Part shown: one piece after another, positions 1 to 51,397 of the stretch | How the letters are laid out: every line of letters begins with the position of its first letter | How positions within the stretch are numbered: position 1 is the first letter of the stretch | IMG/VR virus record: IMGVR_UViG_3300020474_000004 | Span: 16,921-80,920 of that record | Strand: one strand, 5' to 3' | DNA length: 64,000 nucleotides | DNA from: a virus | The notes under the pieces: generated by a model | Seen by the model: only the letters and a program-made list of their open reading frames with translations | What the model was told of the DNA's origin: nothing | The model's database searches: none | Program-made: the position numbers and the translations under genes

Positions 1-3000
1 GGTAACCTATCAGAAATTAGAATAGTTAATCCAGGATTTGATTTGGTTGGTACACCTATCGTATCAATTACCGGTGGAAACGGACAAAATGCTAAAGCTT
101 TAGCATCTACAAAATTAATTAAACATTCCCCAGAATTTTCTGCCAATATCCAGGTTTCATTAACAAATAATACAATAGGATTTTCCACATTCCACAAATT
201 CCGTGGCGGAGAAGAAGTCGTATACAAAACTAACTCACAAAAAGGTGTTGGTGGTTTATCAACCGATTTTAGATATTATGCATCGGTGGTTGATGGAAAC
301 ACAGTAAAATTGCATACTGACTTAGGAGATTCCTTAGCGGGTATTAACACTGTTGTTTTAACAACTACAGGTATTGGAAAGCATTCTCTTGAATGTGTGG
401 AAAAAAAATCTATAGTTAGCGCAATCAATATAGTAGATAGAGGAACTGGATATGAAAATAAAAAAAGATCTGTTACTTCTGCAGGAATTAGTACATCATC
501 CGATATTATAACCATAAAAGATCACGATTATAAATCGGGAGAAATTATAAAATATCTTGGTTCAACAAAAAATCCAATCGCTGGTATATCAACAACTAAT
601 GAATATTATGTAACTGTTGTTGATAAGGATAATTTTAAGTTATCAAATGCTACATCATCCACACAGGAAAAGAATTTTTTCTATAAAACAAAACAATATG
701 TAGATATAACCTCGCAAGGATCTGGATTTCATTCTTTTAATTATCCATCAATTAATGTAACTGTAAGTGGATTAATTGGAATATCATCCATCGGAAATGA
801 AACCTTTGGCGTTAAAGTAGATCCAATCTTCAGAGGAGAGGTATCTTCAGTTCATCTTCAAGATGGAGGATCTCAATATGGTGCAAGTGATATAATAAAT
901 TTTATTAAAAATCCAAGAATTACTGTAGAGAGTGGAAAAAATGCTCAAGTATTGCCAGTCATCACTGATGGAAAAATAAGTGAAGTGATAGTTTTGAATC
1001 CAGGAAGTGGATATGTGTCGAGTATAGATCTCACTATATTTGGATCAGGAATTGGATGCGTATTAACTCCAATTTTAGAAAATGGAAGACTTATTGAAGT
1101 CAAAGTAATAGAATCTGGAGCAGGATATATCTCCGGAGAAACTGAAATAGTTGTTTCGAATACTGAAGCAGAATATGAATTTTCGGGAACTGTAAACAGA
1201 TGGATGATAAATTCATTTGAAAAATTATACCAAAATAACTTCTTGTTGAAGGATGATATTATTTTAGAAAATTCTTCAAGTGACAAGTATGGTCTACAGG
1301 CATACTACATGTATGCACCCAGAAAATTGAGAGAAATGTTGTATTCTGTCAATGAGGGTGGAGAGGTTCTTTATGGAAAACCAGATCTTAAATTAGTTGA
1401 TTCGCAAGAAACTATATTCCAAGATCATTCTCCAATCATAGGTTGGGCATATGATGGAAGCCCAATATACGGACCTTATGGATACTCCTCAAATAGCGGT
1501 GGAGTGGTCACCATTATGAAGTCTGGATATAAACTTAATCAAAATAGACTTGATGGACCACCAACTTCCGTATATCCATTAGGATTTTTTGTGGAGGATT
1601 ATACTCATTACACATACGAGGATGATAGTTATCTTGATGAAAATAATGGAAGATTTTGTGTAACTCCAGAATATCCAAATGGGACTTATGCATATTTTGC
1701 CACAATAGACGAAAATTCTGTCCAATCGGATAATTTATCCGAATTTAAAAATTATAGATTGCCTAAGTTTCCATATTTAATTGGCGACAAGTATAATTCA
1801 GAACCCATAGAATTTAATTTTAAAAAATCATCAAATCAGGAAGATTATGATATTGAAAATAATGGTTGGTGTAGAAATACATTTCCATATAACTTGAGAG
1901 ATGAAAAAGTAAAATATCCATATATCCATTTTCCAAAAACATCAGACGAATCTGCAGTTGTTTCTTCATCCAGTTTAGGTAATATACAAAAGATTAATAT
2001 TAAAACCGCAGGTGATTTTTATAAAGTAGGAGACACTTTAAATTTTGATAATAGATCCACAACCGGAATTGGGGCTGCTGCTAGAGTTTCCTTACTAAAA
2101 GGAAAATCTGTAGAGTCAATCGTTACTGATACAGTAAAACTCACTAACGCTGAGTTAATACCCTCCGATATAAAAAATCAATACTTTATAGAAAAAGATA
2201 CACCACATTCTTTTAATAATCTCGACTTTATTAACATTACTGGTGTATCGACAATATCAACAAATATCGAAGGATCTTATCAAATCGGAGTTTCAAGTGA
2301 AACTTTCAAACTCGTGGGGATTGGAACCACAAATAATATTGCAGTAGGTTCAACATCTGTGACTGGTTTAGTTACATTTTTCTCAGTGTCTGGTAGTTTA
2401 TCCGCTACAAAAATTGTACCTAATGATATTTTAGGAATTGGAACTGAAAGGGTTAAAGTTTTAAATATTGACACAGTAAATTCGAGATTTAGAGTATTAC
2501 GAGAGATTGATGGACCAGTTGGACTTAGCCATACAGTCGGATCGATACTATCAGAAGATTCCAGAAGATTTTCAATAAATGTTGGTTTAAACACTACGTA
2601 TGAATTTAGAAAAAATATTGAAATTTATTTTAATCCAGCAGAAAATGTTGGGTTGGGTACTACGGTTGTTGGGATAGGATCAGTCCTAACATTTTCTAAT
2701 TATGGATTAAATTCTTTGGGTCTAAACACCACTGGATCAAGAAATATATCAGTGCAACTTGGATCAATTTACATTAAAAACCATAACTTCCAAACAGGAG
2801 ATATTTTAACTTACTCCTCTAATGGTGGGAATGGAATTGTCTGTAATGAACAGTCTACAGTTGGAATAGCAACCACTTTGTCCGATGGTCAAAAATTATT
2901 TGTTGCAAAAATTACAAATGATTTAATAGGAATCGCAACTCAAAAAGTTGGTCTTGGTACAACGGGAGAATTCGTTGGGCTTGGAAATACTGCTAAGATA

Positions 3001-6000
3001 CTTTTCTTTGTGGGGGTTGGAAGTGGTAGCAACCATAGTTTTAAAACAAATTATGAAAACTTAACTGTTGAATCTTCAAGGCATAATGTCACGGTCACCA
3101 CGGACCAAGACCACTTATTACATGAAGGTCATAATGTATTCATAGATGTAAATCCTCAAACAACATTAAATTACAAAATTAAATTTAATGATTTAAATCG
3201 AAGAGTTCTTGTAGGCATTAAAACTTTTTCTAATGTCGGAGTTAATACGAACAATAATACTATTACCATACAAAATCACAATTATGAAAGTGGAGATAAG
3301 GTAGTATATTCATCGGCAGATCCTTGCGAAGGATTAGAAAATAATAAAATTTATTACATTGTGAAAATTGATGCAGATAAGTTTAATTTATCAAATACTC
3401 TTTATGGTTCAACATTATCTAATCCTAATATAGTAGGAATTGCTAGCACTAGTCTTACTTTTGGAGAAATAGGATTAGTCAATCCGATAATTTCTGCCTA
3501 TAGAGATTCTACTTTAGAATTTGATATTTCTGATACTTCTTTGGCATATGAAAAAGAATCTACATTATATTCCGCATTTAAACTTAATTTTTATATTGAT
3601 AAAAATTATACAAAATTATGGGAGTCTGATTTATCTTCGTCAGTATTTAATGTAACTAGAGAAAACAAGTCCGGATTATCTACTACATCGAAAGTTTCGG
3701 TATCTATTGGAAAAACAACACCATCTATTCTGTATTATAGATTAGATCCTGTTACTAATAATAACCTTCCAAAAATAAAATCTGAAGTAATGGTTGATGA
3801 TGAAATTATTGGAAGTGGTAGTATTGAGGTAAGAGATAGTGTTTATAGTGGACTTAGAAAAGTATCCACTGCTGGAACCAATTTCTTTAATTTCTCTATA
3901 AACGAAATCCCAGAAAATAATTCTTATGTGTCCACTTCATCTTCAATAACGTATACTACAGACTGTATTCATACAAATGGACCAATATCTACGGTAGAAA
4001 TAGTAAACCCAGGAAGAAATTATGATTCATTACCAGATATTGCTTCCATAAATTCTAATAACGGATCAAGAGCTGAACTTTTATGTCTTAGCGAAAATAT
4101 TGGAAAAATTGAAAATGTTTCTATAAAAGATATTGGATATGATTATCCAAGTGATAAAACACTAAAACCAAGTGCAATTCTTCCTCAAATTATTAAAGTT
4201 GACTCCTCTGCAATAATTAACACTATTTCCGTATCTTCAAATGCAAAGGGTTATACTTCGGCACCAAAACTAGTAACATTTGATGGAAAAACTAATAAGA
4301 TAGTATCTGACTTGGATTTAAAGTATTCTATTAAGGATAATGAAGTAATCATTTTACAGAATACAAGAGGAATGAATAATTCTACTCCTACAATTATTCC
4401 GGTTGAAAATAATAATGGAGTCGGTATTAATAATGTTGAATTTGACGATTCATCTAAGGAAGTGACCATAAGATTATCATCTGGATTCTCATCATTGAAT
4501 GACTTCCCATTTGAAGTTGGTGGTAAAGTTTTTGTTGAAAATGTAAGTGTAGGAATAAATTCAACTGCGAAAGGATTTAATTCAAAGAACTATGGATATA
4601 AGTTATTCACTTTAACTTCAGTTACTCCAAATATTGGAGGTATCGGAACTGTTTCATATAATCTTTCTGAGGATTTAAATGATGGTGAAATTCCAGGAAA
4701 GGCGGATCTCATCAGATCTTCTGGAATTATTACTCCTGAGAAATATTTTCCAACTTTTGTTATTGATTTAGCAACAAAGGACTTTATTCCTGGCGAAAAA
4801 ATTGTTTCATCTACTAAAACAGGAACAGTTCAAAGTTGGGATAGTACCACTAAAACCCTGAGAATTCTATCTCAAGATACCTTTAAAGTTGGTGAAAAAA
4901 TAAGAGGATTAACCTCAGACTCATTAGCAACAAACTCTGAGGTAAAATCATATGAAACTTATTTTAATGTCGATACAAAAACAGATATATTTGAAGGTAA
5001 TCAGACTATTTCTGGATATTTAAATAACAATCTTCAGAGAGTTCAGGATAATCACTATTATCAAAATTTCTCATATTCAATTAAATCTAGGATTCCACTA
5101 GCAGAATGGGATGATATTGTTTCAAGCACCAATCATTCTATAGGATTTAAAAAGTTTGGGGATCTTCAAATTGAATCTAGGAATGATGAACAACCAGCTA
5201 ATATTGGATTGACAACAGCACTTACCGATATGACAATTGATTATGGAATATCGGAGTATATTGATACAAATTGCGTTTTTGATTTTGATTTGGGAAGAGA
5301 GAATAATATTAATTTTGATGAAACCACTATTTTGTCAGATGAAATTGTACTTAAGAGTAAAGTTCTTTCCGATTTTAGTGAGTCCGTTGGAAATAGAGTT
5401 GTATCAATAGATGATGTGAGTCCTCAATTTAATAATACACCAAGAGCGACTGCTTTTGTTGCTTTAGACTCCTTTAATTTAAGTGATTTTAGAAGTAAAA
5501 AGTATTTTATTTATCTTAAAGACACTAGATTTGTAAAGGAAAGGCAATTTGAGATTGTAAGTCTTATTCATGATAGTGCTTCAAATGGATATCTAAATCA
5601 GTATGCAAAGACAGACTCTGTAAGAGATTTGGGTTCTTTTGATTTTGCAATCTCTGGATCTGTAGGTGAATTTAGATTTTTCCCAATAAATTCAAGAGTA
5701 AATGATTACGATGTATGTGCATTATCTTTCAACTTGGATGACAATCTACTGGGAATTGGAACTACATCTATTGGCGAATCTATCATACAAAGTAATAGTG
5801 TTTCAGTTCCATCCACACCAACAAACATTGTAAGCATTGGAAATACATATCACTCACTTAAGGTTTTAGTAACCATAGCACCTGATGTTGAGAATGTATC
5901 ATTTGGATCTACTGCTACATTTAACTCAAGAGAATTTGAATATCAAGAATTGAATATTTGTCATGATGGAACTGATGTTTCATTAATAGAGTTTGGTAAA

Positions 6001-9000
6001 CTAACAACATCTATTGGTGAAGTATCTGCTGCCGGATTTGGAACTTATAACGCATATCTTGATGGTAGTGATCTTAAAGTAGATTTCCATCCAGAGGTTG
6101 GTATTGGAACGACTTCGGTAGTTAATACCATTGTTGTTGGACTCTCCACTGCCTCTTCTGGAATATCAACTGTAGACATGAAGCACGCTAGATTAGAGTC
6201 TAGAATAACTCAAATCTCTTCTTCTGGATCTCCAACTGAAAATGTTGTTGGTCAGTATCCAAGTCACATTTCACAAGAAGTTGATAGGTATGATTCATCA
6301 TATTGTTTGATTCAACTTCATGATACCACTAATGATAGATATGAGTTCTTAGAGCATATAGTAGTTGATGATCATGTTGAAGGAGTATTAATTAATCAAA
6401 CTTTTGATACTGAATTTGCAAATGTGAGGACACACAGTGGTCTCGGAACTTTTGGAAGTAAAATAGTTACGGATGGAGTTGGTATTGCAGCAACAACACA
6501 AATTCTCTTCACTCCAGAACCTAACATTAATGTAAATGTCCACGTTTATATGAATGCACTTAGAGTTGAGGATGACACCAAAGACTTTATTAACTTTAAC
6601 AACGGAACATATTCTACATCATTTACGAAGTATACGGGCACTGATAGAGATGTAATAAGATCTTTCCCAATTAAGCACGTATTTAGTCCCATTTTTGAAA
6701 AAGTATTTGATGGAAGTGATTCCACTATAGTTAAAACAGTTGGAGATACCATCACTATTCCCGATCATTTCTTTGTCACTGGTGAAAGGGTTAGATACAA
6801 TTCAGCTGGATTATCAACAACAGATAAAATTGGTATTGCTCAGACTACCTTCCCCGAAATTGGTATTACAACATCATTCATCCCAGATAGTGGATTATTC
6901 ATTGTTAAGGTTGACGACGAAACAATTCAATTATCAAGAAGTGCAGAGGATGCACTTAAAGCTGTTCCCAAGGTTCTTGAGTTTACTTCAGTGGGGATTG
7001 GTGCTTCACATAAATTTATTGCTACCAATCAGAATCCAAAAGTTCTAATAGCACTCGACAATATTATTCAATCTCCTATTGTATCAACTGGTGATACAAC
7101 AATTTTACTGCAGAGTGTTGTGACTACGGATGACCTTATAAAATTAAGTAGTGTTGAAAATTTAACCGGTGGCGACTTATTGAAAATTGATAGCGAAATA
7201 GTAAAAATTGAAGGACTTGGAATAGGTGCTACTAACACCATAAGAGTTCGTAGATCTTGGTTAGGTACACCTCTATCTGGATTCTCTACTGGTGCTTTGG
7301 TTACTAAAATTATTGGTAACTATAATATTGTTGACAATACACTTAATTTTGCAGACGCTCCTTTTGGTAATGCAATAACTGCAGGTGATGCACAGAGTAG
7401 TTTCCAGGGAAGAGTATTCACTAGAAGTGGAGTTCCTCAAAGTTCAAATGAACCATATTATAAAAATGTTGTTATTGACGATATATCAAAACAGTTTGAT
7501 GGTGTCAAAAATAACTTTACTATCAAATCTCAAAATGCAAATATCTCAGGCATTGCTAATGAGGGAATACTTGCACTTGTTAACGACATATTCCAAACAG
7601 TTGGTAATGAAAATAATTATGAACTTATAGAGTCCTCAGGCATTACTACAGTTTCTTTTGTTGGAACTGCAAGAGATTTGACGAGAGATGTGGGAATATC
7701 AACTCTACCTAGAGGTGGTATGATTCTTTCTGTTGGATCTACCACAGGATTTGGATATCAACCTCTCATAGGTGCTGGTGGAACTGCAGTGGTTTCTGGT
7801 CTCGGAACAATTTCTTCTGTTTCTATTGGAAATAGTGGTTCTGGTTATAGAGTTGGTGTTCAGACAGTGAATGTAAGTGTTGGTACTTCTTCTTTAGGAA
7901 GTGGAAATTTTGTTTCTATAGGAACTGCTGTTGTCAATAATAATGGAAACATTGTCAGTATTGCCATTACAAATCCAGGAGTAGGATATACTCAAACAAA
8001 TCCACCATTTGTTGTTATTGACGATCCACTTTCATACTCAGGAATAGCTTTAACTTATAGTTCTGTCTCAACAGGAATTGGAAGTGGTATTGGTGCTGTT
8101 GCTGATATTGTTGTTGGTCAAGGATCCAGTGTTATTAGCTTTAATTTAAAAAATACTGGATATGGATATCAAGAGGGTGAAATATTAACAGTTCCTACTA
8201 GTGGTCTTTCCGGAGTTCTTACTACATCTCAGTTTAGTGGTGATGAATTCCAAATCTCGATTGATAAAGTACATTATGATGAATTTACAGGATGGTCGGT
8301 TGGTGTACTTGATAATTTTGATGATATAAGTGAGTATCCTGATGGCAAGAGATTGGATTTCCCACTTATTAAGTCTGGAAATCTTGTTTCTATCAATAAG
8401 AAGAAAGGATCAAAAATTGATCTTAATCAAGTTTTGATTGTATTCATTAATAATATTCTACAAGTTCCCGGAGACTCTTATAGATTCCCTGGTGGTTCTA
8501 GAATTATATTCAGCGAACCACCAAGAGTTGGTGATGATATTAAAATTATTTTCTACAAGGGAAGTGGAGATGATCTGGATGTTATTGATAGAGAAGTAGT
8601 TGAATCATTGAAGATAGGAGATGAAGTAACTTTAAATTATGATCCAGGACAAAATCAAAGTATACTACTTCAACAAAATGCAAGAACAGTTAACACAACA
8701 GTTTCTATTGATGCTGTTAAAACTAATCCATATTTTGGTCCTGGTTTAACTGATAAACAGGAATTAGAGAGACCAATCACATGGTGTAGACAAACTGAGG
8801 ATAAACTGATAAACGGTCAGGAGATCACAAAAGATAGAGAACTTTATGAATCAATAATTAGTCCGGTTGCTAATATTATCAGTCCGGTTGGAATTACAAC
8901 TGAAATAATATATGTTGATAGATTGAGACCACTATTTGATAGTTTTATAGAGAATCCTGATATTAACATTCGTGCAGGTATTCAGAAGAAAGTCACTATC

Positions 9001-9885
9001 ATTCCGACGCACGTTACAGTTGGAGCTTCTGCCACCGCAGTTGTTTCTGCTGCTGGAACTATTAGTTCCATTATTGTAAATAATGGGGGGGTTGGTTATT
9101 CAACAACTCCTGGTGTAAGTATAGCAAGCACTATTGGTGTAGGAATAGGAACAACCAATACAGCACTCGCTGTCACAACAATAAGTGTTGGTGGAACCGT
9201 ATCTCAAATATCTGTTACTAATGGTGGTATTGGATATACCAGTTCTCCATCAGTAATTATTGGTGAACCTACATATTCAACAGAGGAAAATGGCGTTACT
9301 AATTATATTGGAGACTCTGGTATTGTTGTTGGATTCGGTACTCAATTTATTGGTGCTGGAACCACACAAATGATCTTTGATCTACATATCCCATATAATT
9401 CAAAACTAAGAGATACGAATATTGTTGGAACTGCTATAACTCTTAGTGGATTATCGGTTGGAGATTATTTTACTATCACGGATTCAAATATAGGTTCTGC
9501 AAGCACAAGCATAACATCTTTGTCTAATGACAATTCTACAATTGTTGGAATTAGTAGAGAGCATCTTGATGGTGTTTATGTTGCAAATTCTGTTCAGTAT
9601 GTGAGTAAAAGTGTTGCTGGAGTTTCGACTCAAGTAGCAAGAATTATTGTTAATACTACAAGTCATCCTACAGGAGCAGGAATAACCGTAGGTGTTACAA
9701 CAGCACCATTCATCGGTAATTTCTCTTGGGGTAAAGTTACTCTCACTGGAAGAAGTAAAAACCTGGCATATCCAGCACAAACCATGTCGGGGATAGGAAC
9801 TGATAATAATACTGGTATATCAACTTCTACAAAACTTGTTAGAACTAGATACATCAGATTTAAAAATTCTTCTAACTATACTTAA
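1..9885 (+). CDS. gp7: Giant baseplate wedge protein (cyanophage gp7-like), 5'-truncated; contains a YHYH-like domain
   Basis: Frame 1 is open from base 1 (GNLSEIRIVNPGFDLVG...), so the TTG at 43 is not the true start. >3280 aa, Gly/Ser/Thr-rich beta repeats, motif IIGWAYDGSPIYGPYGY...LDENNGRFCVTPEYPNGTYAYF; immediately upstream of gp8 as in T4-like cyanophages. Confidence 0.75.
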   Translation, partial: GNLSEIRIVNPGFDLVGTPIVSITGGNGQNAKALASTKLIKHSPEFSANIQVSLTNNTIGFSTFHKFRGGEEVVYKTNSQKGVGGLSTDFRYYASVVDGNTVKLHTDLGDSLAGINTVVLTTTGIGKHSLECVEKKSIVSAINIVDRGTGYENKKRSVTSAGISTSSDIITIKDHDYKSGEIIKYLGSTKNPIAGISTTNEYYVTVVDKDNFKLSNATSSTQEKNFFYKTKQYVDITSQGSGFHSFNYPSINVTVSGLIGISSIGNETFGVKVDPIFRGEVSSVHLQDGGSQYGASDIINFIKNPRITVESGKNAQVLPVITDGKISEVIVLNPGSGYVSSIDLTIFGSGIGCVLTPILENGRLIEVKVIESGAGYISGETEIVVSNTEAEYEFSGTVNRWMINSFEKLYQNNFLLKDDIILENSSSDKYGLQAYYMYAPRKLREMLYSVNEGGEVLYGKPDLKLVDSQETIFQDHSPIIGWAYDGSPIYGPYGYSSNSGGVVTIMKSGYKLNQNRLDGPPTSVYPLGFFVEDYTHYTYEDDSYLDENNGRFCVTPEYPNGTYAYFATIDENSVQSDNLSEFKNYRLPKFPYLIGDKYNSEPIEFNFKKSSNQEDYDIENNGWCRNTFPYNLRDEKVKYPYIHFPKTSDESAVVSSSSLGNIQKINIKTAGDFYKVGDTLNFDNRSTTGIGAAARVSLLKGKSVESIVTDTVKLTNAELIPSDIKNQYFIEKDTPHSFNNLDFINITGVSTISTNIEGSYQIGVSSETFKLVGIGTTNNIAVGSTSVTGLVTFFSVSGSLSATKIVPNDILGIGTERVKVLNIDTVNSRFRVLREIDGPVGLSHTVGSILSEDSRRFSINVGLNTTYEFRKNIEIYFNPAENVGLGTTVVGIGSVLTFSNYGLNSLGLNTTGSRNISVQLGSIYIKNHNFQTGDILTYSSNGGNGIVCNEQSTVGIATTLSDGQKLFVAKITNDLIGIATQKVGLGTTGEFVGLGNTAKILFFVGVGSGSNHSFKTNYENLTVESSRHNVTVTTDQDHLLHEGHNVFIDVNPQTTLNYKIKFNDLNRRVLVGIKTFSNVGVNTNNNTITIQNHNYESGDKVVYSSADPCEGLENNKIYYIVKIDADKFNLSNTLYGSTLSNPNIVGIASTSLTFGEIGLVNPIISAYRDSTLEFDISDTSLAYEKESTLYSAFKLNFYIDKNYTKLWESDLSSSVFNVTRENKSGLSTTSKVSVSIGKTTPSILYYRLDPVTNNNLPKIKSEVMVDDEIIGSGSIEVRDSVYSGLRKVSTAGTNFFNFSINEIPENNSYVSTSSSITYTTDCIHTNGPISTVEIVNPGRNYDSLPDIASINSNNGSRAELLCLSENIGKIENVSIKDIGYDYPSDKTLKPSAILPQIIKVDSSAIINTISVSSNAKGYTSAPKLVTFDGKTNKIVSDLDLKYSIKDNEVIILQNTRGMNNSTPTIIPVENNNGVGINNVEFDDSSKEVTIRLSSGFSSLNDFPFEVGGKVFVENVSVGINSTAKGFNSKNYGYKLFTLTSVTPNIGGIGTVSYNLSEDLNDGEIPGKADLIRSSGIITPEKYFPTFVIDLATKDFIPGEKIVSSTKTGTVQSWDSTTKTLRILSQDTFKVGEKIRGLTSDSLATNSEVKSYETYFNVDTKTDIFEGNQTISGYLNNNLQRVQDNHYYQNFSYSIKSRIPLAEWDDIVSSTNHSIGFKKFGDLQIESRNDEQPANIGLTTALTDMTIDYGISEYIDTNCVFDFDLGRENNINFDETTILSDEIVLKSKVLSDFSESVGNRVVSIDDVSPQFNNTPRATAFVALDSFNLSDFRSKKYFIYLKDTRFVKERQFEIVSLIHDSASNGYLNQYAKTDSVRDLGSFDFAISGSVGEFRFFPINSRVNDYDVCALSFNLDDNLLGIGTTSIGESIIQSNSVSVPSTPTNIVSIGNTYHSLKVLVTIAPDVENVSFGSTATFNSREFEYQELNICHDGTDVSLIEFGKLTTSIGEVSAAGFGTYNAYLDGSDLKVDFHPEVGIGTTSVVNTIVVGLSTASSGISTVDMKHARLESRITQISSSGSPTENVVGQYPSHISQEVDRYDSSYCLIQLHDTTNDRYEFLEHIVVDDHVEGVLINQTFDTEFANVRTHSGLGTFGSKIVTDGVGIAATTQILFTPEPNINVNVHVYMNALRVEDDTKDFINFNNGTYSTSFTKYTGTDRDVIRSFPIKHVFSPIFEKVFDGSDSTIVKTVGDTITIPDHFFVTGERVRYNSAGLSTTDKIGIAQTTFPEIGITTSFIPDSGLFIVKVDDETIQLSRSAEDALKAVPKVLEFTSVGIGASHKFIATNQNPKVLIALDNIIQSPIVSTGDTTILLQSVVTTDDLIKLSSVENLTGGDLLKIDSEIVKIEGLGIGATNTIRVRRSWLGTPLSGFSTGALVTKIIGNYNIVDNTLNFADAPFGNAITAGDAQSSFQGRVFTRSGVPQSSNEPYYKNVVIDDISKQFDGVKNNFTIKSQNANISGIANEGILALVNDIFQTVGNENNYELIESSGITTVSFVGTARDLTRDVGISTLPRGGMILSVGSTTGFGYQPLIGAGGTAVVSGLGTISSVSIGNSGSGYRVGVQTVNVSVGTSSLGSGNFVSIGTAVVNNNGNIVSIAITNPGVGYTQTNPPFVVIDDPLSYSGIALTYSSVSTGIGSGIGAVADIVVGQGSSVISFNLKNTGYGYQEGEILTVPTSGLSGVLTTSQFSGDEFQISIDKVHYDEFTGWSVGVLDNFDDISEYPDGKRLDFPLIKSGNLVSINKKKGSKIDLNQVLIVFINNILQVPGDSYRFPGGSRIIFSEPPRVGDDIKIIFYKGSGDDLDVIDREVVESLKIGDEVTLNYDPGQNQSILLQQNARTVNTTVSIDAVKTNPYFGPGLTDKQELERPITWCRQTEDKLINGQEITKDRELYESIISPVANIISPVGITTEIIYVDRLRPLFDSFIENPDINIRAGIQKKVTIIPTHVTVGASATAVVSAAGTISSIIVNNGGVGYSTTPGVSIASTIGVGIGTTNTALAVTTISVGGTVSQISVTNGGIGYTSSPSVIIGEPTYSTEENGVTNYIGDSGIVVGFGTQFIGAGTTQMIFDLHIPYNSKLRDTNIVGTAITLSGLSVGDYFTITDSNIGSASTSITSLSNDNSTIVGISREHLDGVYVANSVQYVSKSVAGVSTQVARIIVNTTSHPTGAGITVGVTTAPFIGNFSWGKVTLTGRSKNLAYPAQTMSGIGTDNNTGISTSTKLVRTRYIRFKNSSNYT

Positions 9886-32008: not shown

Positions 32009-35000
32009 ATGGCAGATCCAAAGATTAAGTTTAAGAGGTCGGCTGTAGCCGGTAAAATTCCTACCGCCGCACAAGTTCCATTAGGAGAACTTGCTTTAAA
32101 CACTAACGATGGTCTTCTATATACGTCAAAAGATGTTGGTGCTGGAGCAACAGTCATCGCCGTTAACCCATTTAGGGTAGGCACAGGGACAGATAGTTAT
32201 AACGCATTTTTTACTGCTGGTAATGTTGGTATAGGTTCTACATTACCAACGGCAAAACTTGATGTATCCGGTCAAGTAAATATAACAAATTCAGAATCAC
32301 AAGGTTCTGCTACTACTGGCGCAGTTGAGTTTGATGGGAATGATTCTCTCAGGGTGGTGCATGACTCAGGGTTCAACTTAGGATCAAATAATTTCACTGT
32401 AGAAGCATGGTTTAAATATACTGGAACAATAAGTAATTATCATAGTATCTTCGCATTTTCAGGTGGCAACATCAATATTAGGCTTAGATTATTAAGTGGT
32501 AATGTAAGACTTGATTATAGAATTGCTGCTCTTGGTGCTACTTTATCAGGATCTGATGCTACTGTTGCGCTTTCATCTGGAACATGGTATCACGTTGCCC
32601 TTGTAAGGAATGGTAATAATTTAAATCTTTACTTGGATGGCGTTTCTAAACTTAGTTCAACAACATTTACTCAATCCTTTTCTGATCAAAATGGCGAAGG
32701 ATTTAGTATAGGATCCCATGCAAACGCAACGCCAGGACATTTCTTCCCAGGTGATATTTCTAACGTTCGTCTTGTAAATGGAACTGCTGTATATACTTCG
32801 GCATTTACAGTGCCCACAACACAACTTTCAAATATAACAAATACGAAAGTTCTCTGCTGCCAATCAACAAGTTCAGTCACAGCAGAAGCAACTGGCAAAA
32901 CAATTAATACTACTGGAGACCCATCAGTTGCATCCAGTAATCCAGGATTAACATATACAGCGACTATTAGTGCTCCAAGTCATTTAAATGTATCTGGAAT
33001 AACAACTACATCTGTATTAAAAGTAGGAACTGGTATAACTGCTTCTGGTGGTATTGTAACTGCTACAACTTTCAGTGGTTCTGGTGCATCTCTTACCAAT
33101 CTTCCTGCTGCAAACATAACAGGAACTTTACCAGCAATAAGTGGTGCTAACTTAACGAACTTAAATGCGTCGAATCTTGCTTCAGGCACTGTTCCTGATG
33201 GTAGATTCCCTGCCACACTTCCTGCTGCTAGTGGCGCTAATTTAACAAACTTACCAGCAGCAAATGTAACTGGTACACTTCCTGCAATTAGTGGTGCTAA
33301 CTTAACGAACTTAAATGCTTCTAATCTTGCTTCAGGCACCGTTCCCACAGCAAGAATTCCTACACTCAATCAGGATACAACAGGAACTGCTGCTGGATTA
33401 ACTGGTACTCCAAATATAACAGTTGGAACTGTCACAGGAGCATCTTTAGATATTTCCGGTAACGTTGATATTGATGGAACCTTAGAAGCAGATGCCATTA
33501 CTGTTGATGGTACAACATTAGCAGAAACTATTTCAGATACTGTAGGTGCAATGGTTTCTAGTAATACCGAATCTGGTATTACTGTTACATATCAAGATAG
33601 TGATAATACTCTTGATTTTAGTGTAGCATCACAAACTGATGAAAACTTTACGACTGCTGATCATTCCAAATTAGATGGTATTGAAGCAAGTGCTGATGTA
33701 ACTGACGCAACTAATGTGGCAGCAGCTGGTGCTGTTATGGAGTCAGATTCTACTACTGCAAGTATGAGTTTTGTTGTAGATGAAGATAATATGTCTTCTA
33801 ATTCTGCTACAAAAGTACCAACTCAACAGTCTGTTAAAGCATACGTTGATTCTCAGGTAACGGCACAAGATTTAGATCTTACAACTGATAGTGGGACTAT
33901 CGCTATTGATCTCGATAGTGAAACTCTTACCATTCAAGGTACAACAAACGAAATTGAGACAAGTGCAACTGGTAATACTGTCACTGTCGGTCTTCCCAAT
34001 AATGTAACCGTAGGAAATAATCTTACAGTTGGAAATGACTTGGTTGTAACCGGATCATTAACATATGAAGATGTAACTAATATTGATTCCGTAGGATTAT
34101 CAACATTTAGAGCAGGAGTTAATATCACTGGAACAGCGACCGCAACATTATTTTCCGGTTCTGGTGCATCACTCACCAATCTTCCTGCTGCTAATCTTAC
34201 AGGAACTCTACCTGCTATTAGTGGTGCAAACTTAACGAACTTAGATGCTACCGATCTTGCCTCTGGAACTATCCCAGATGCACGATTCCCAGCAGCACTT
34301 CCTGCGATTGATGGATCTGCACTTACAGGTATCACAGCATCAGGAACTGGTGCTATTGGTGGTCTAACCATTAAGAATCAAAGTGGTGCTGTTGTTGGTA
34401 CTGCAGGTAGTGTTTCTACGATTGACTTTGATGGATCTGCAGGAGTTACTGTTTCTGCTACAACTGGTGCTGCCGGTATTGCTACCGTGCTCATCTCTGC
34501 AGATCTTGTAACAGATACATCTCCACAACTTGGTGGCAATTTAGATCTCAACGGCAATAATATCACTGGATCTGGTAATATTCCTGCTGCTAATGTAACT
34601 GGCACACTTCCTGCGATTAGTATTGGTGGTGACTTATCTATCGTCGATAAGATAGTTCACACTGGAGATACCAATACATCTATTGGATTCCCTTCTGATG
34701 ATAAAATACAACTTGCCACAAATGGATCTCCAAAAATGACACTCGACAACGTAGGTCGCGTGTTGATTGGAACTACAGGTGCTCCATCTGGCACTGATGC
34801 TCAATATAGTAAATTAGTAATTAGAGGAAATACTTCATCGGCCACAGCAGTTGCTTATTTGTCATTAGGAAACGGGAAAACAACATCAGATACAGGAACA
34901 AACGAAAACTTAGGAATACTTACTTTTAATGATAATGATAACGACGCAGGTGAATACGCACGTATTATAGGTGCATCAGATGGTTCGAATGGAACTGACG

Positions 35001-38000
35001 ATTATCCAGGAAAACTGATATTTTCTACAACTGCTGATGGTGGTTCAAGTCCAACAGAAAGACTTCGTATCAACAGCTCGGGTCAGGTGCTGATTGGTGC
35101 CACAAGCGGCGGCGGTTTATTTTCGGTTCATCAGGCTACTAGTTCGACCTCTAATTACATAAACATTACCAATGACGCCACTGGTTCTTCTTCGTGGGCG
35201 AATGGAATGCTCTTGGGTAACAATGCGTCTGGCGATGCATTGGTCTGGCAAAATGAAAACCTAAATTTAATTTTTGGAACCAACAATAACGAGCGGATGC
35301 GTATAACCGCTACTGGAAGAATGGGATTGGGAACCCAAAATCCAACATCAACATTACATGTTAGTGGTACTGTAACTGCTACAACTTTCAGTGGTTCCGG
35401 TGCATCACTCACCAATATTCCTGCTGCTAATCTTACAGGAACACTCCCAGCGATTAGTGGTGCTAATCTCACTAATCTTGATGCTTCAGACCTCGCTTCA
35501 GGCACAGTTCCTGATGGTAGATTCCCTGCCACACTTCCTGCAGCTAGTGGCGCTAATTTAACAAATTTACCAGCTGCAAACATAACAGGAACTTTACCGG
35601 CAATCAGCGGTGCAAACTTAACGAACTTAAATGGTTCGAATATTTCTTCGGGAACAGTTGCTGCCGCGAGGGTTGGTGCTCTTCCCGCAAGTAAAATCAC
35701 TACAGGCACATTTGATGCTGCTAGAATTCCTACTCTTAATCAGGATACAACAGGAACTGCTGCTGGGTTAACGGGAACTCCAAATATAACTGTTGGAACT
35801 GTAACAGCAGCATCTTTAGATATTTCTGGAAACGTTGATGTTGATGGGACACTAGAAGCAGATGCTATCACTATTGATGGAGCAACTCTCGCAGAAACTA
35901 TTTCCGACACTGTAGGAGCAATGGTTTCCAGTAATACCGAAACTGGCATTACTGTTGCATATCAAGATAGTGATAATACTCTTGATTTTTCCATTGGAAC
36001 ATTAAATCAAGATACAACAGGAACTGCTGCACTTGCAGAGGGTCTGACTGGTTCACCTACTATTGGCGTCAGCACAATTACAACTACTGGTAGTGTAGGA
36101 ATAGGTTCCACACTACCAACAGGTAAACTTGACGTTTTAGGTCAAGTAAACATCAAATCTACATCGACCACAACAACATCCGGAATAGCAACATCATATA
36201 CTGGATCTGTTTATCTTGATGGCAATAGTGATTATCTAACAGTTCCTGGTCCTGGAACATTAGCAGCAAGTTCTAACTGGACTTTAGAATGCTATTTCTA
36301 TTGCACTGGTACTTCTAGTGGAACTTATAGAATTGTTGGTGCCAATGAAAGTGTAAATGGATCTCAATATTCTTTTATTAGGATCAGGAATGGTCAGTAT
36401 CAGTTTTTTACTGATAATGCATATAGTAGTACAGTTGGAACTGCTACTTTTAATGCATGGCACCATATTGCATTTACAAAAACTGGAACAACTCTGCGTG
36501 GTTTTGTTGATGGGGTCAAAATTTATGAGGCAACAGACAATAATTCAGATAGTATTACAACATTTGTTGTTGGATGGGGTTATGGAAGTGAATATTTCCC
36601 AGGATATATTTCAAATGTAAGATTTGTAAATGGCACTTCTCTTTACAAAGAGAACTTCACTCCCCAGACAGCAGAACTTACCAAAATTTATAATACTACT
36701 CACCTTTTAGCACAGTCTTCAAGTTCAGCAACTGCAGAAGCGACTGGCAAAACTGTGACTGCTGTTGGCACTGCTGCAGCATCAACAACAAATCCAAGTC
36801 TTGTAAAAGGATTTGATTTGTCTGGTTCTGTTGAACTTGATGGAACTGGTGATTATCTTAGTGTAACTCATTCTGATTTAGCATTAGGTACGGGAGACTT
36901 TACACTTGAATTTTGGACGTACATACACACTCAAAACGCTGGATATGATGCAGTATTTGAAAGTCGATCATCTACTAGCGCAACTGATGGATTTACTATT
37001 GGAAGATTTGGAACTTCTGGTCATGTTAATAAGTTTTCAATGTTTTTCGGTGGAAATTATAGATCAGAAGCAGATACAACAGTTGCAAACAATACATGGT
37101 CTCATGTAGCACTTGTTAGATTTAATGGTACAACTACATTATACTTAAATGGTATAGCAGGGTCCACAACTTATAGTGACTCAAATAATTATAGCAACAC
37201 TTCTGTAAAGATTGGTGTTAATGCAAGTAACTCTAACGATTTTGATGGAAATATCTCCAACTTACGTTTAGTTAAAGGAACCGCACTTTATACATCTAAC
37301 TTCTCCCCAACATTTACTGAACTTACAAATTTACCAAATACAAAACTTCTTGCGTTTCAATCATCAAGTTCTGCAACAGCTGAAGCAACTGGTAAAACTA
37401 TTACTGCTGTTGGTAATGCTGCTGCATCAACAACAAGTCCCGGATTAATCTCACCAAATAGTCTCACTGGTTCTGTTGATTTTGATGGAACAGGTGATTA
37501 CTTAACAGTCGCCGATAGTTCTTTAAATCCAGGAACAGGTGATTTTGCTGTAGAGGCATTTGTTAAATTTGCAAGCAATTCTGGAACTAGAAGAGCAGTG
37601 GTTATGGACACCACTGCATATGGTTCCAATAGTTTAAGTATTCAACAATATAATAATGGATTTGAATTTTATTGTGGTGGTCAAAATCACTATACAAGTG
37701 GTTTTGACATGACAATATGGCATCACGCGCTGATCACAAGAAAGAGTAATACAATAAGATATATTGTCGATGGTAAAATAATAGGAACAGATACTAGTTC
37801 TAACAACATTTATGGTGAACCTACAAATACATTAACTATTGGTGGATATAATAGTGTTTCCAATAGTGAGTATATGGGGGGTTATATTAGTAATGTAAGA
37901 TTAGTTGTAGGTTCTGTTCCATCTGAGTATGAAACGACATCTACATCTGTTGGAACACAAGTATTTACTCCTACAAGAGAAGAATTAACTAATGTTACTG

Positions 38001-39254: not shown

Positions 39255-39275
39255 ATTGATATTAACTGTGTTTTG

Positions 39276-42917: not shown

Positions 42918-45146
42918 ATGGCGACTCCTCAATTATCTCCTGGAGTACTGGTAAGGGAGGTTGACCTAACAGTAGGAAGAGCTGATAATGTTTTAGATAA
43001 CATTGGTGGCATTGCGGCACCATTTGAAATTGGACCTGTAGAAGAGGTAACTAATATCCCTACAGAGCAAAGACTTCTGTCTGTATTCGGAGAACCAAAG
43101 GAAGCAGATAGTCACTATGAGTATTGGATGAGTGCATCGTCCTACCTCTCATATGGTGGTGTTCTTAAGGTAGTAAGAGCAGACGATGACGATCTGAAGA
43201 ACTCGAATGCAGGTGTAGGAATTGCAAATACAACTACACTGAAAATCAAGAACTACGACGACTACGGTAACAACTACGAGTCAGCAACTGACTTCTACTA
43301 TGCTGCTAAGAATCCAGGTTCTTGGGCAGATGGACTGAAGGTTTGCTACATCGACGACCTTGCAGACCAGACACTTGGAGTTTCGACAAACAGCGCAGGT
43401 GCAAACCTTGGACTTGCTGGTTTAGGTGCTACAGTTGGAATGGGTGTTACTGCAGCAATTTCTGGAGTTCTTCCAAATGCATCGACTGGTGGCACATCCT
43501 CTTTCACTGGATATCTGAAAGCAATTGTCACCGGAGTAAGCACAGCAACATCTGGAACCGCAAGTTCTATTGATGTAAAGATTGTTTCGAGAGTAGACTC
43601 CGCAGGAACAGAAACAAGAATTGATTATGCAGAGGGAGATGGATTCTCATCCTTCGATACTGCTGATACATTATTCTTCACATCTAATGCAGGAAATGTA
43701 ACTACAGGACAAGCAGTAGCAACCGCAGTTGACTGGTATGATCAGCAGACTTTAGGTCTTACAAATTCCACAGTATACTGGAAGACTCTTGCTCCAAAAC
43801 CAGGAACAAGTGTTTATGCTGATGAAAGACAAGGACATGGCGATGAACTTCACATCGCTGTTGTTGATGACAATGGAGATTTAACCGGAGTCAAAGGTAA
43901 TATCCTTGAGAAGCACACTGGTCTTTCCAAAGCAACAGATGCTGTATCTGCTGTTAATGCTCCACAAAAGATTTACTATAAAGATTATATTAGAGATTTA
44001 TCTACCAACCTTTACGCTGGTAAAAATCCTCTCGCTGCTATTGATGCTCATCATGGAACTGCCCCAACGGCAACTGGATTTACTGCCTATACTGGAGTAA
44101 AATCAGCATCCTTTACCGCAGAAGGTGGCGCTGCAAACCAAGGTGGAGTTGCACAAGATAAGCAATTCCTTTCTATCGGTAATAAGACTTATACCTTCGC
44201 AGGTGGTAATGATTACCAGAGCACTGGTGGAGATGGTTACAAGGCAGACCTTGGAAAACTTATTTCCGCATACGGACTCTTTAGTAATAAGGATGAAACC
44301 GAAGTTGACTTCTTAATCATGGGACCTGGTTGTGATACTGAAGCACAATCTCAAGCAAAAGCAAATTATCTTATCTCTCTCGCAGGAGCAAGAAAAGATT
44401 GTATGGCAGTTGTTGGTCCTCATAGAGCAAACGTTGTCAACATCACAAACACTGAGACTCAGACAACCAATCTGATTAACTATTTCAGCCCATTACAATC
44501 CTCTTCCTACGCGGTATTTGATTCCGGTTATAAGTATACCTTTGATCGTTTCAATAACAAGTTCCGTTATATTCCATGCAACCCAGATGTTGCTGGAATG
44601 ATGGCAAGAACTGCTCTCAACTCCTATCCATGGTTCTCACCAGCAGGTCAGCAGAGAGGTGTTATTAATAACGCTGTTAAACTTGCTTACAACCCATCTA
44701 AGACTCAAAGAGATCGTCTCTATCCTAAGAGAATCAACTCCTTCATCACTTCGCCTGGTGCTGGAACATTCCTCTTCGGTGATAAGACTGCACTTGCTTA
44801 TCAGTCTGCTTTCGACAGAATCAACGTTCGCCGCTTGTTCCTCACAATTGAGCAATCACTTGAGAGAGCAGCACAAGCACAACTCTTCGAACTCAACGAC
44901 GAGTTAACGAGAGCAAACTTTAGAAACATTGTTGAACCATACCTCCGTGATGTTCAAGCAAAGAGAGGACTGATTGACTTCCTCGTTATCTGTGATGAGT
45001 CGAATAACACACCAGATGTTATTGATAATAATGAATTTAGAGCAGACATCTTCCTGAAGCCTGCCAAGTCGATTAACTTCATTACACTTACTTTCGTCGC
45101 CACACGTACTGGAGCAAGTTTCCAGGAAGTCGCTGGTAGAGTTTGA
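42918..45146 (+). CDS. gp18: Tail sheath protein
   Basis: LSPGVLVREVDLT, WFSPAGQQRG, LFGDKT, FDRINVRRLF, IFLKPAKSINFITLTFVATRTG. Confidence 0.98.
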   Translation: MATPQLSPGVLVREVDLTVGRADNVLDNIGGIAAPFEIGPVEEVTNIPTEQRLLSVFGEPKEADSHYEYWMSASSYLSYGGVLKVVRADDDDLKNSNAGVGIANTTTLKIKNYDDYGNNYESATDFYYAAKNPGSWADGLKVCYIDDLADQTLGVSTNSAGANLGLAGLGATVGMGVTAAISGVLPNASTGGTSSFTGYLKAIVTGVSTATSGTASSIDVKIVSRVDSAGTETRIDYAEGDGFSSFDTADTLFFTSNAGNVTTGQAVATAVDWYDQQTLGLTNSTVYWKTLAPKPGTSVYADERQGHGDELHIAVVDDNGDLTGVKGNILEKHTGLSKATDAVSAVNAPQKIYYKDYIRDLSTNLYAGKNPLAAIDAHHGTAPTATGFTAYTGVKSASFTAEGGAANQGGVAQDKQFLSIGNKTYTFAGGNDYQSTGGDGYKADLGKLISAYGLFSNKDETEVDFLIMGPGCDTEAQSQAKANYLISLAGARKDCMAVVGPHRANVVNITNTETQTTNLINYFSPLQSSSYAVFDSGYKYTFDRFNNKFRYIPCNPDVAGMMARTALNSYPWFSPAGQQRGVINNAVKLAYNPSKTQRDRLYPKRINSFITSPGAGTFLFGDKTALAYQSAFDRINVRRLFLTIEQSLERAAQAQLFELNDELTRANFRNIVEPYLRDVQAKRGLIDFLVICDESNNTPDVIDNNEFRADIFLKPAKSINFITLTFVATRTGASFQEVAGRV

Positions 45147-45851: not shown

Positions 45852-45872
45852 TTGACTCTATTTTCTCTCCTA

Positions 45873-45879: not shown

Positions 45880-45905
45880 GTAGAGATACAGTTTAGAGTT
45901 TAATA

Positions 45906-47573: not shown

Positions 47574-47589
47574 TAAGTAAATTTGTAAC

Positions 47590-47796: not shown

Positions 47797-47799
47797 ATA
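47793..47799 (+). promoter_or_regulatory. Late promoter (ATAAATA)
   Basis: Late consensus overlapping stop. Confidence 0.55.
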
Positions 47800-47822
47800 A
47801 AATATACAAGTAGATTATAAAA

Positions 47823-48086: not shown

Positions 48087-48091
48087 AAACA

Positions 48092-48745: not shown

Positions 48746-48748
48746 TTT

Positions 48749-48756
48749 TATAAATA
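48749..48756 (+). promoter_or_regulatory. Late promoter, perfect TATAAATA, for gp22-gp23
   Basis: Exact T4 late consensus. Confidence 0.8.
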
Positions 48757-48793
48757 AATATAGTTTTAATACCGGCAATAACGGAGAGTTCAA

Positions 48794-49939: not shown

Positions 49940-49987
49940 ATTTAAAATTAAATCAAACATAAACTAACCACACATAGGTAAACGCAA

Positions 49988-51397
49988 ATGTTCCATTCCG
50001 AACAGTTGCAGGAAAAGTGGGCACCTCTCCTCAACCATGAGGGTCTTGATAAAATCGAGAACTCCCATAAGAGAGCAGTAACCGCAGTCCTGCTGGAAAA
50101 CCAAGAAAAATTCCTCCGTGAGCAAAGTGCCTTCGAAAGCGGCACCACAATGCTTACTGAGCAACCTAACATGAACACCCAAACCGGCTCTGCTGCTGGT
50201 TTCTCTGGTGGTGCAACCGCATCAGGTCCTGTTGCCGGTTTCGATCCAGTTCTGATTTCCCTGATCAGACGCTCTATGCCTAACTTGGTCGCATATGACC
50301 TCGCAGGTGTTCAGCCAATGTCTGGTCCTACTGGACTCATCTTTGCGATGCGTTCACGTCGTGACAGTCAGTCTGGCACTGAAACCTTCTTCGATGAAGT
50401 AGATACCGCATTCTCCGGTCAGGACAAAGGTCTTGACCTCACCAACGGCATGACCAATGCTGCAGTTGGTATGGGTACTACCGGACACAACCCTGGCACT
50501 AACCCTGGTGCTCTGAATCCTTCCTCCAACGCCACACAGAAAGCATATTCTGTTGGTCAGGGTATGCGTACAGACGACGCAGAAGCACTTGACGGTACTG
50601 GAAGCAATGCTTTCAACCAGATGGCATTCTCGATCGAGAAAGTCACCGTTACTGCGAAGTCTAGAGCACTGAAGGCTGAGTACTCCTTAGAACTCGCACA
50701 AGACCTTAAGGCAATCCACGGTCTGAACGCTGAAGCGGAACTCGCAAACATTCTCTCCACTGAGATTCTTGCTGAGATCAACCGCGAAGTCATCAGAACC
50801 ATCTACAAGACTGCTGAGTCTGGTGCTCAAGTCAACACCGCAACCGCTGGTGAGTTCGACCTCGATGTCGATTCCAACGGACGCTGGAGTGTTGAGAAGT
50901 TCAAGGGTCTTCTGTTCCAAATCGAGCGTGATGCTAACGCAATCGCACAAAGAACTCGTAGAGGAAAGGGCAACATCATCATGTGTTCCGCAGACGTTGC
51001 TTCTGCACTGACCATGGCTGGTGTTCTCGATTACACCCCTGCACTCAACGCTAACCTTAACGTTGATGACACCGGTAACACCTTCGCTGGTGTTCTCCAA
51101 GGTAAGTATCGTGTATACATCGATCCTTATGCTGCAAACAGTGCTGCTAACCAGTACTACGTTGTTGGTTATAAGGGAACTTCTCCTTATGACGCTGGTC
51201 TGTTCTACTGCCCATATGTACCCCTCCAGATGGTACGTGCTGTCGGCGAGAACTCCTTCCAGCCCAAAATCGGATTTAAGACCCGCTACGGCATGGTTGC
51301 TAATCCATTCGCTGAGGGTCTTACCCAAGGCAGCGGCGCTCTCACAGTTAACGGAAACCGTTACTACAGAAGAGTCACTGTTAAGAACCTTATGTGA
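49988..51397 (+). CDS. gp23: Major capsid protein
   Basis: KWAPLL, DPVLISLIRRSMPNL, GVQPMSGPTGLIFAMR, KSRALKAEYSLELAQDLKAIHGL, FQPKIGFKTRYG. Confidence 0.99.
   Translation: MFHSEQLQEKWAPLLNHEGLDKIENSHKRAVTAVLLENQEKFLREQSAFESGTTMLTEQPNMNTQTGSAAGFSGGATASGPVAGFDPVLISLIRRSMPNLVAYDLAGVQPMSGPTGLIFAMRSRRDSQSGTETFFDEVDTAFSGQDKGLDLTNGMTNAAVGMGTTGHNPGTNPGALNPSSNATQKAYSVGQGMRTDDAEALDGTGSNAFNQMAFSIEKVTVTAKSRALKAEYSLELAQDLKAIHGLNAEAELANILSTEILAEINREVIRTIYKTAESGAQVNTATAGEFDLDVDSNGRWSVEKFKGLLFQIERDANAIAQRTRRGKGNIIMCSADVASALTMAGVLDYTPALNANLNVDDTGNTFAGVLQGKYRVYIDPYAANSAANQYYVVGYKGTSPYDAGLFYCPYVPLQMVRAVGENSFQPKIGFKTRYGMVANPFAEGLTQGSGALTVNGNRYYRRVTVKNLM

Follow-up and report, generated by a model that had tools for sequence, protein, structure and literature searches.

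A short glycine-hydrophobic-hydroxyl motif is concentrated in the gp7-like baseplate giant of one clade of T4-like cyanophages

The triple β-helix of gp5, a tail protein of phage T4, carries an octapeptide repeat, VxGxxxxx, whose short Val-Gly signature lies at strand corners. In mycobacteriophages, phage-encoded glycosyltransferases reportedly O-glycosylate virion proteins, and the chemistry is said to have been shown for capsid and tail-tube subunits. In the fibres of Bdellovibrio bacteriovorus, 'capping loops' of identical structure lie at the edges of a trimeric β-helix; their consensus, V-G-G/N-π-X-X-P-X-X-X-L, was also found in other S74-type proteins, and the term 'glycosyl' is absent from the paper's main text (Caulton et al. 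2024, Nat Microbiol, PMC10769870). Here we describe a short motif, G-[IVL]-x-[ST], in a 64,000-nucleotide stretch of viral DNA (the window; positions 16,921 to 80,920 of the IMG/VR record IMGVR_UViG_3300020474_000004). PHROG and Pfam scans identify the window as the late structural module of a T4-like cyanomyovirus, whose closest named relatives are the Synechococcus phages Bellamy, S-SM2 and SynMITS9220M01. An earlier note on this DNA had proposed that the motif pervades unrelated virion proteins as a genome-wide tag. We find that within the window it exceeds chance in the gp7-like baseplate wedge protein alone, where it may well mark the ends and turns of β-strands, and that the excess is confined to one clade of phages.

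The locus resembles each of these systems in part. The core V-G-[ILV]-G-T is that of the capping loops of Bdellovibrio MAT and S74-type fibres, three sites with the full capping-loop pattern are present in a 2411-amino-acid (aa) fibre of the window, and, as in capping-loop fibres, the motif recurs within one fibre (12 sites in two fibres of the cyanophage S-TIM5). Unlike capping loops, the 48 sites in the window part of gp7 all lack the P-x-x-x-L half, leaving no capping-loop-type site in that protein, and they are predicted to lie in small barrels rather than in a trimeric β-helix. As with the T4 gp5 repeat, a short Val-Gly signature would mark strand corners in a phage tail protein; unlike that strictly periodic repeat, the gp7 sites are irregularly spaced, with gaps of 5 to 293 residues. 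The likeness to mycobacteriophage O-glycosylation consists of a phage transferase-like gene and Ser/Thr sites on virion proteins; the differences are that the capsid and tube here lack the motif and that the enzyme assignment is weak.

The protein that carries the excess was identified as gp7 by its homology to phrog_2885 and by its position between gp6 and gp8 in the order gp25-gp6-gp7-gp8; its orthologues in S-SM2 and P-SSM2 bear a gp7 annotation. Its open reading frame (ORF) starts 2328 nucleotides before the window and spans 4070 aa in full on the 80,920-base contig. We compared motif counts in each of 31 window ORFs with 2000 global and 2000 local (100-aa block) composition-matched shuffles, using both the motif as stated (the loose form) and a strict form, G-[IVL]-[GSA]-[ST]. 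The dozens of copies that had been seen by eye in the gp7-like protein were confirmed: 48 loose sites were observed versus 15.1±3.7 expected, a number reached in 0 of 2000 shuffles, and 30 strict sites versus 3.6±1.9. This was the sole protein of the 31 with a significant excess of the loose motif. A first-order Markov model of the full 4070-aa protein gave expectations of 20.9 loose sites (50 observed) and 6.5 strict sites (30 observed). When the three residue classes of the motif were put into nine different orders, the motif itself gave z=8.3 and the overlapping order [IVL]G.[ST] gave z=6.7, with |z| at or below 2.0 for the other seven. The most over-represented exact 3- and 4-mers of the protein were GIG, VGI, GIGT, GIGA, VGIG and GIST, and the extended consensus reads [V/A/S]-G-[I/L]-[G/S]-T-[T]-[S/N]. 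Along the full-length protein, the N-terminal 750 aa hold 2 sites and the density peaks at aa 1501-2000, with 17.

Two simple sources of these copies were ruled out. The 30 strict sites differ in their codons, which argues for selection at the level of the protein and against a DNA-level repeat. A single long repeated domain was excluded by hidden Markov models (HMMs) of the motif-bearing segments together with a blastp self-comparison of gp7, which returned nothing at 1e-3; beyond five repeat modules and one copy of a barrel, the HMM matches extended over just 10 to 30 residues and scored near 0. (In a chunked hhalign self-comparison, the first chunk of each pair compared began no later than aa 721.) The five modules in the window part of gp7 account for about 13 of its 48 sites. 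In one variable loop, a short lineage-specific insertion, GLNSLGLNTT (window 2704-2733, gp7 aa 902-911 in window numbering), adds two motif copies in 17 of 82 relatives, indicating that motif copies can come from local duplication.

The excess is conserved. All six orthologues from named phages (37-50% identical) showed it, with loose z values of 7.9 to 13.0, as did the gp7 proteins of P-SSM2, ACG-2014f and S-CAM9 (z of 8.5, 6.4 and 9.7), making 9 of 9 full-length orthologues tested; three of four ORF fragments from the gp7 region of S-SKS1 were also above expectation. In a seven-sequence alignment, the motif is kept in at least four of the six orthologues at 22 of 48 sites and in none at 10. 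We also aligned 82 sequences from viral contigs over window aa 724-1250, after excluding 10 duplicate translations, one locus with a match length not divisible by three and another containing a stop or X; two loci with partial matches (L025 and L026) were left outside. There the motif is kept in at least 70% of the relatives at 11 of 18 sites. At its fourth position Thr accounts for 60% of residues, Ser for 22%, and Val and Ile for 1% each, and conservation of the Thr/Ser class is 0.82 as compared with 0.59 for other Ser/Thr columns (Mann-Whitney p=0.0014). The Gly and the hydrophobic position were no more conserved than other Gly or Ile/Val/Leu columns of this alignment. The flanking positions are V/I/T at -1 (62%) and I/L/V/F at +1 (82%), matching the pattern that a strand with one buried face would be expected to show. 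The idea that related phages might use a different motif at the same aligned positions was not borne out, as gp7 orthologues keep the same motif at the same sites. By shuffles, Markov model, permutations and the specific conservation of Thr/Ser, then, the motif is non-random in gp7.

Part of the gp7 extension consists of a repeat module of about 70 to 90 aa with the pattern HxFxxG[DE]xVxY...G[IL]xT..YYV..VD..FkL...GxGxHxF. This gp7 has six copies, the sixth lying upstream of the window. Ten motif-rich gp7 proteins carry 6 to 7 modules each, and a single fixed column holds the motif in 28 of these 62 copies; the giants of Syn9 and S-RIM8, which consist of other domains, have 0 copies, so that the difference between clades in gp7 tracks domain content. 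No relative of gp7 was found in the PDB by sequence, and its fragment matched only unnamed clusters in the ESM atlas. AlphaFold models of a 527-aa gp7 fragment (window aa 724-1250) reached a predicted local confidence (pLDDT) of 60.2 with 20 input sequences and a mean pLDDT of 78.4 with 82. Searched as a whole against the PDB with Foldseek, the model gave only weak, scattered matches. With VIA-align 2, model residues 41-132, a small β-barrel with three motif sites, matched a baseplate barrel of phage JBD30 (8rk3_o; Z 11.5, root-mean-square deviation 2.0, 80 residues aligned) as well as tail-tip and capsid accessory barrels of other phages, and residues 348-437 matched a barrel of the phi92 endosialidase (4hiz_A, Z 7.0). 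In the model, one of the three sites of the small barrel directly follows a strand, one directly precedes a different strand and one is in a hairpin turn. Of 14 sites evaluable with the secondary-structure program DSSP, five are at a strand end or immediately beyond it and one is immediately ahead of a strand; five more are in strands or a hairpin, and three in coil. Four further copies occupy a low-confidence, indel-rich loop (model residues 164-193, pLDDT <50).

Elsewhere in the window the motif occurs at the level expected by chance, and the claim that it pervades unrelated virion proteins did not hold there. The 14 other virion proteins together contain 55 loose sites versus 47.8±6.6 expected (p=0.15). 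The supposed further carriers, the VrlC-like protein (10 versus 9.1) and the three fibres (5 versus 7.2, 7 versus 7.3 and 18 versus 14.0), are unexceptional, as are gp6 (1 versus 2.7), gp8 (1 versus 1.6), gp13 (2 versus 0.5, p ~0.08), gp14 (4 versus 2.1), gp18 (4 versus 2.1, p ~0.15) and gp23 (0 versus 1.2); the capsid, tube and portal of the window contain no G-[IVL]-x-[ST] site. For the strict form, the 14 virion proteins without gp7 give 24 versus 13.9 (p=0.007), an excess driven by the 2411-aa fibre, which is mildly high for the strict form (10 versus 4.5, p ~0.017) and at chance for the loose form; with that fibre removed, the pool falls to 14 versus 9.5 (p=0.10). Such a modest ratio is generic, since 14 non-virion proteins of the window reach the pooled virion ratio with 4 versus 1.1. 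Ordinary enzymes in general lie 2- to 3-fold above shuffles for the strict form (11 proteins of S-TIM5, for instance, give 9 versus 2.6), so that the true null in real proteins lies above the shuffle mean.

All seven strings that the earlier note had quoted from conserved proteins are present in the window: GVGLGT of gp8 (aa 220), PIGIVTTTATSTVGVSTT of gp13 (aa 76), GVGVTAT and SGVTT of gp14 (aa 205 and 346), TLGVST and TGVST of gp18 (aa 152 and 205) and AVGMGTT of gp23 (aa 159), although the last has Met and falls outside the motif as stated. Hits in gp8, gp13, gp14, gp18, the VrlC-like protein and the other fibres are nonetheless indistinguishable from chance in this window. The scarcity described for gp17, gp20, UvsW, gp46/47 and gp45 agrees with their composition, from which 0.4 to 0.8 sites are expected in each; gp21, also described as poor in the motif, holds 2. 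Low Gly and Ser/Thr contents predict the scarcity in replication and packaging proteins. Nor are the carriers all non-homologous, given that gp7, gp14 and the VrlC-like protein share domains, as do the three fibres.

The three full-pattern sites of the 2411-aa fibre, GNVGIGSTLPTAKLDV, ERMRITATGRMGLGTQNPTSTLHV and GSVGIGSTLPTGKLDV, appear to be the known capping loop of trimeric β-helix fibres, V-G-x-G-T-x-x-P-x-x-x-L. Their common form is G-x-[VM]-G-[IL]-G-[ST]-x-x-P-x-x-x-L-x-V, and the pattern G[IVLM][GN][STA]..P...[LIVF] finds the 3 sites (aa 74, 1106 and 1364) where 0.03 are expected, a descriptive figure because the pattern was picked after seeing the data. Residues 1082-1137 of this fibre match crystallised recombinant fibre tips of Bdellovibrio bacteriovorus (8ojn_C, E 3.5e-8; 8ond_A, 2.9e-7; 8oml_A, 0.002) with the motif aligned, which indicates that V-G-I-G-T can have a purely structural role. 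In S-TIM5, the two tail fibres that carry the 12 sites (66179-70426 and 76754-82114) contain 8 and 4 repeats of ER.RITS.G.VGIGT..P...L.V, which is the unit of the solved Bdellovibrio MAT fibres. Another part of the 2411-aa fibre, aa 514-684 (window 33548-34060), is homologous to the solved fibre gp28 of the cyanopodovirus P-SCSP1u (8i4m_e, E 2.9e-24); one fibre domain is therefore common to cyanobacterial myo- and podoviruses. The motif as originally stated thus lumps together a gp7 turn motif, fibre capping loops and chance-level hits.

Comparison across phages restricts the excess to one lineage: it is present in the gp7 proteins of the motif-rich clade and absent from those of Syn9 and S-RIM8. 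The giants at the gp7 position in these two phages contain 14 versus 21.0 and 16 versus 24.0 sites (the Syn9 giant, 5504 aa, is cut at the end of the locus), and their pooled virion proteins are at or below chance (41 versus 51.4 for 14 proteins of Syn9; 44 versus 53.0 for 11 of S-RIM8). In Bellamy, of which we scanned the first 140 kb (63 ORFs of at least 200 aa), gp7 contains 72 versus 19.3 sites and all other 62 ORFs together 158 versus 100.1. Three Bellamy fibre proteins are enriched (29 versus 8.5, 15 versus 3.5 and 21 versus 4.7), as is its VrlC-like protein (strict 10 versus 2.1) and, weakly, its sheath and gp14; the capsid, the portal and five other fibre-like proteins of Bellamy show no enrichment. 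Eleven orthologous core virion proteins, pooled, give 25 versus 21.3 in the window (p=0.24), 39 versus 21.4 in Bellamy (p=4e-4; strict 19 versus 5.0) and 15 versus 16.6 in Syn9. A wider trend beyond gp7 is therefore real in some relatives. The quoted sites of gp13, gp14 and gp18, and four sites of the VrlC-like protein, recur in Bellamy. At these places Syn9 and S-RIM8 show replacements or deletions; both have sites at other positions. In the unrelated cyanomyovirus S-TIM5, the 29 annotated virion proteins are at chance for the loose form (87 versus 80.7), and their strict excess (30 versus 20.7) lies in three fibre proteins, two of which owe it to the capping-loop repeats.

The earlier note had seen no modifying enzyme in the window and had suggested a search elsewhere in the genome. 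Just outside the window we found a candidate, a 256-aa ORF with a DxD motif, in the gene order 256-aa ORF, ferredoxin-like gene, gp25, gp6, gp7. Its match to a PHROG glycosyltransferase family is weak (E 2e-7). The segment WIDSDIVF (DxD following a hydrophobic strand) and an EDVxFC motif are conserved in the window genome, Bellamy and S-TIM5, and we take this combination to resemble GT-A enzymes. The nearest ESM-atlas clusters are automatically named glycosyltransferase, one of them with PF00535 in 14% of its members, and some depositors label homologues in the same way. The ORF has no Pfam match at E up to 10 and no meaningful PDB match by sequence; its best NCBIfam match has an E value of 0.022, and no Pfam domain occurs in the 120 homologues listed, which are close relatives only. 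By tblastn, homologues are present in 104 phage records, with 61-91% identity in T4-like cyanophage records among the 60 rows listed, and in the nine genomes in which both positions were seen the homologue lies 1.3 to 3 kb upstream of gp6. All 8 motif-rich genomes searched (Bellamy, P-SSM2, S-CAM9, S-SM2, SynMITS9220M01, S-B43, P-TIM68 and ACG-2014f) carry the gene and both motif-poor ones (Syn9 and S-RIM8) lack it, a co-occurrence that probably amounts to a single contrast between two clades. The homologue in S-TIM5 is 55% identical and lies among auxiliary metabolic genes. Upstream of the 256-aa gene is TTGACA-17-TAGAAT, a σ70-type site with 11 of 12 consensus matches, though such a match is no proof of timing; gp25, gp8, gp18 and gp20 are instead preceded by NATAAATA. 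The families PF00535 and PF00534 were rejected as a conserved enzyme, being patchy in five relatives (two above the cut-off for PF00535, none for PF00534) and encoded by different genes. In P-TIM68 (NC_028955.1, 58617-59513), the homologue matches in two pieces within one 301-aa frame, with an insertion of ~28 residues. An HNH homing endonuclease has been annotated over part of the matching stretch in phages B3 and B23. A paper on cyanophage S-SCSM2R (2025, PMC12801897) lists a homologue as a glycosyltransferase; in its discussion, the targets of such genes are the host surface or DNA.

What does the motif do in gp7? The likeliest view, to which we give about even odds, is that it is a clade-specific structural micro-motif, a strand-exit or turn signature of β-rich domain families. 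In its favour are the robust excess in gp7, the varied codons, the conserved positions, the flanking hydrophobic pattern, the strand-end sites and small barrels of the model, the repeat module of the motif-rich clade and the capping loops of fibres. In this scheme [V]-G-[ILV]-[G/S]-T-[T] would be placed where β-strands end or turn in the barrel and β-sandwich modules of the gp7 extension, the Gly would allow a kink, the hydrophobic residue would pack inward and the Thr/Ser hydroxyl would cap the turn; the domain families that bear the motif would be peculiar to one T4-like cyanophage clade and used in gp7 and some fibres. Several observations weigh against it. The hydrophobic residue is in a DSSP strand at only 5 of the 14 evaluable sites of the model, and the motif Thr/Ser is almost never Val or Ile, though a pure strand preference would allow these. 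Of the 16 sites that align in homologous segments of the Syn9 giant, only 1 retains the motif, so that the fold has no strict need for it. The wider excess in pooled core virion proteins of Bellamy, with none in Syn9, is what a clade-specific tag would predict, and the glycosyltransferase-like gene tracks the motif-rich clade. A role as a docking or assembly strand, for β-augmentation among gp7 subunits or onto a partner such as a decoration protein, chaperone or fibre, strikes us as improbable: the motif is short, lacks extended flanking homology, is conserved in position and recurs in a loop for which AlphaFold gives no confident monomer placement, yet we identified no partner, many sites lie inside confidently folded barrels, and the other baseplate proteins of the window, gp6 and gp8, are not enriched. 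Least probable is that a composition rich in Gly, Thr, Ser and Val/Ile, or a repeated DNA element, generated the pattern as a whole. Such an origin accords with every window protein except gp7, all of which sit at their composition-based expectation, and with the strict-form surplus in ordinary enzymes; for gp7 it is refuted by the shuffles, the Markov expectation, the flat permuted motifs and the differing codons. It stands for the rest of the window.

That the motif is instead the sequon of a phage-encoded glycosyltransferase, with the 256-aa GT-A-like protein glycosylating Thr/Ser of gp7 and, in some relatives, of fibres, neck and sheath, seems to us rather unlikely. The PHROG match, the DxD and EDVxFC motifs, the atlas names and the depositor labels all point towards such an enzyme; in favour of the sequon, too, are its homologues in 104 phage records, its position near gp6 in nine genomes and its division between motif-rich and motif-poor genomes; the hydroxyl residue is specifically conserved, and Bellamy shows its excess in variable stretches of conserved proteins. 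Against this, the family assignment is weak, with neither Pfam nor PDB match and Pfam-less listed homologues, and a single phylogenetic contrast underlies essentially all of the co-occurrence. In S-TIM5 the homologue is present yet the virion proteins are at chance, with the strict excess in capping-loop repeats; the capsid, tube, portal, two fibres and VrlC-like protein of the window are not enriched; the promoter-like site of the 256-aa gene differs from that of the baseplate and sheath genes, and its neighbourhood in S-TIM5 is that of auxiliary metabolic genes; and the same sequence is a structural loop in recombinant bacterial fibres. As a genome-wide Ser/Thr tag, the motif thus finds support in the gp7 excess, the Thr/Ser conservation and the candidate enzyme, but not in any virion-wide excess in the window. 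The structural and sequon readings are compatible with each other. It is a tentative thought, and a doubtful one, that the clade glycosylates its own baseplate giant (and some members their fibres, neck and sheath), with the motif both turn and sequon.

The window also encodes gp8, gp13, gp14, gp15, gp16 and gp17 to gp23, followed by UvsY, UvsW, gp55, gp47, gp46 and gp45 (Table 1 lists the features discussed). Within the gp7 extension there is a YHYH domain (PF14240, E 5.7e-23) at window 1420-1725 (gp7 aa 474-575 in window numbering). Between the fibres and gp17, at window 39273-40964, lies a 563-aa protein that combines DUF192 with a C-terminal DUF6321 (phrog_727).

Table 1. Positions of the features discussed, in window nucleotides except for the candidate enzyme ORF.
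Feature	Position	Strand	Remarks
gp7-like baseplate wedge giant	1..9885	+	window part is the C-terminal 3294 of 4070 aa; phrog_2885, E=0; 48 G-[IVL]-x-[ST] sites
gp7 repeat module, copy 1	184..390 (window aa 62-130)	+	self HMM domain E 1.8e-27; two motif sites
gp7 repeat module, copy 2	511..738 (window aa 171-246)	+	self HMM domain E 3e-29
gp7 motif-dense zone, 14 sites	2242..3024 (window aa 748-1008)	+	tandem copies in variable loop aa 884-911
gp7 small β-barrel module, three motif sites	2290..2565 (window aa 764-855)	+	predicted, AlphaFold model
gp7 repeat module, copy 3	2770..3042 (window aa 924-1014)	+	self HMM E 2e-23; four motif sites
gp7 repeat module, copy 4	3265..3471 (window aa 1089-1157)	+	self HMM domain E 7.5e-29; within the model stretch that matches 4hiz_A
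gp7 repeat module, copy 5	6754..7017 (window aa 2252-2339)	+	self HMM E 2.1e-25; two motif sites
VrlC-like structural protein, 2547 aa	11467..19110	+	phrog_358, DUF4815
gp13 stretch PIGIVTTTATSTVGVSTT	19759..19812	+	common to Bellamy; replaced in Syn9 and S-RIM8
gp14 C-terminal extension with the quoted strings	20988..21425	+	part homologous to gp7 aa 3019-3090
Fibre-like giant	24239-27589		
Fibre-like giant	27603-31598		
Fibre-like giant, 2411 aa	32009-39244	+	Laminin_G_3 domains
Capping-loop-type site GNVGIGSTLPTAKLDV, 2411-aa fibre aa 66-87	32204..32269	+	pattern match
Capping-loop-type site ERMRITATGRMGLGTQNPTSTLHV, 2411-aa fibre aa 1098-1119	35300..35365	+	aligns to Bdellovibrio fibre chains
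Capping-loop-type site GSVGIGSTLPTGKLDV, 2411-aa fibre aa 1356-1377	36074..36139	+	pattern match
gp18 sheath stretch with TLGVST and TGVST	43371..43544	+	both sites in Bellamy, absent in Syn9
Candidate enzyme ORF, 256 aa	L028:10342-11112, 5.8 kb upstream of window start		phrog_1574, E 8.5e-118

Among the matches listed in our literature searches, no phage paper appeared for VGIGT, GIGTT, VGIGTT or NVGIGT, nothing relevant for glycosylated virion structural proteins of cyanophages, and no baseplate structure of a T4-like marine cyanophage. Should the motif prove structural, it would offer a cheap sequence marker for parsing the giant, hard-to-annotate β-rich baseplate and fibre proteins of cyanophages, and small barrels would have reused the V-G-I-G-T turn of β-helix fibres. 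Should it prove a sequon, it would represent the first virion glycosylation in marine cyanophages, with a bearing on adsorption, host range, particle stability and grazing.

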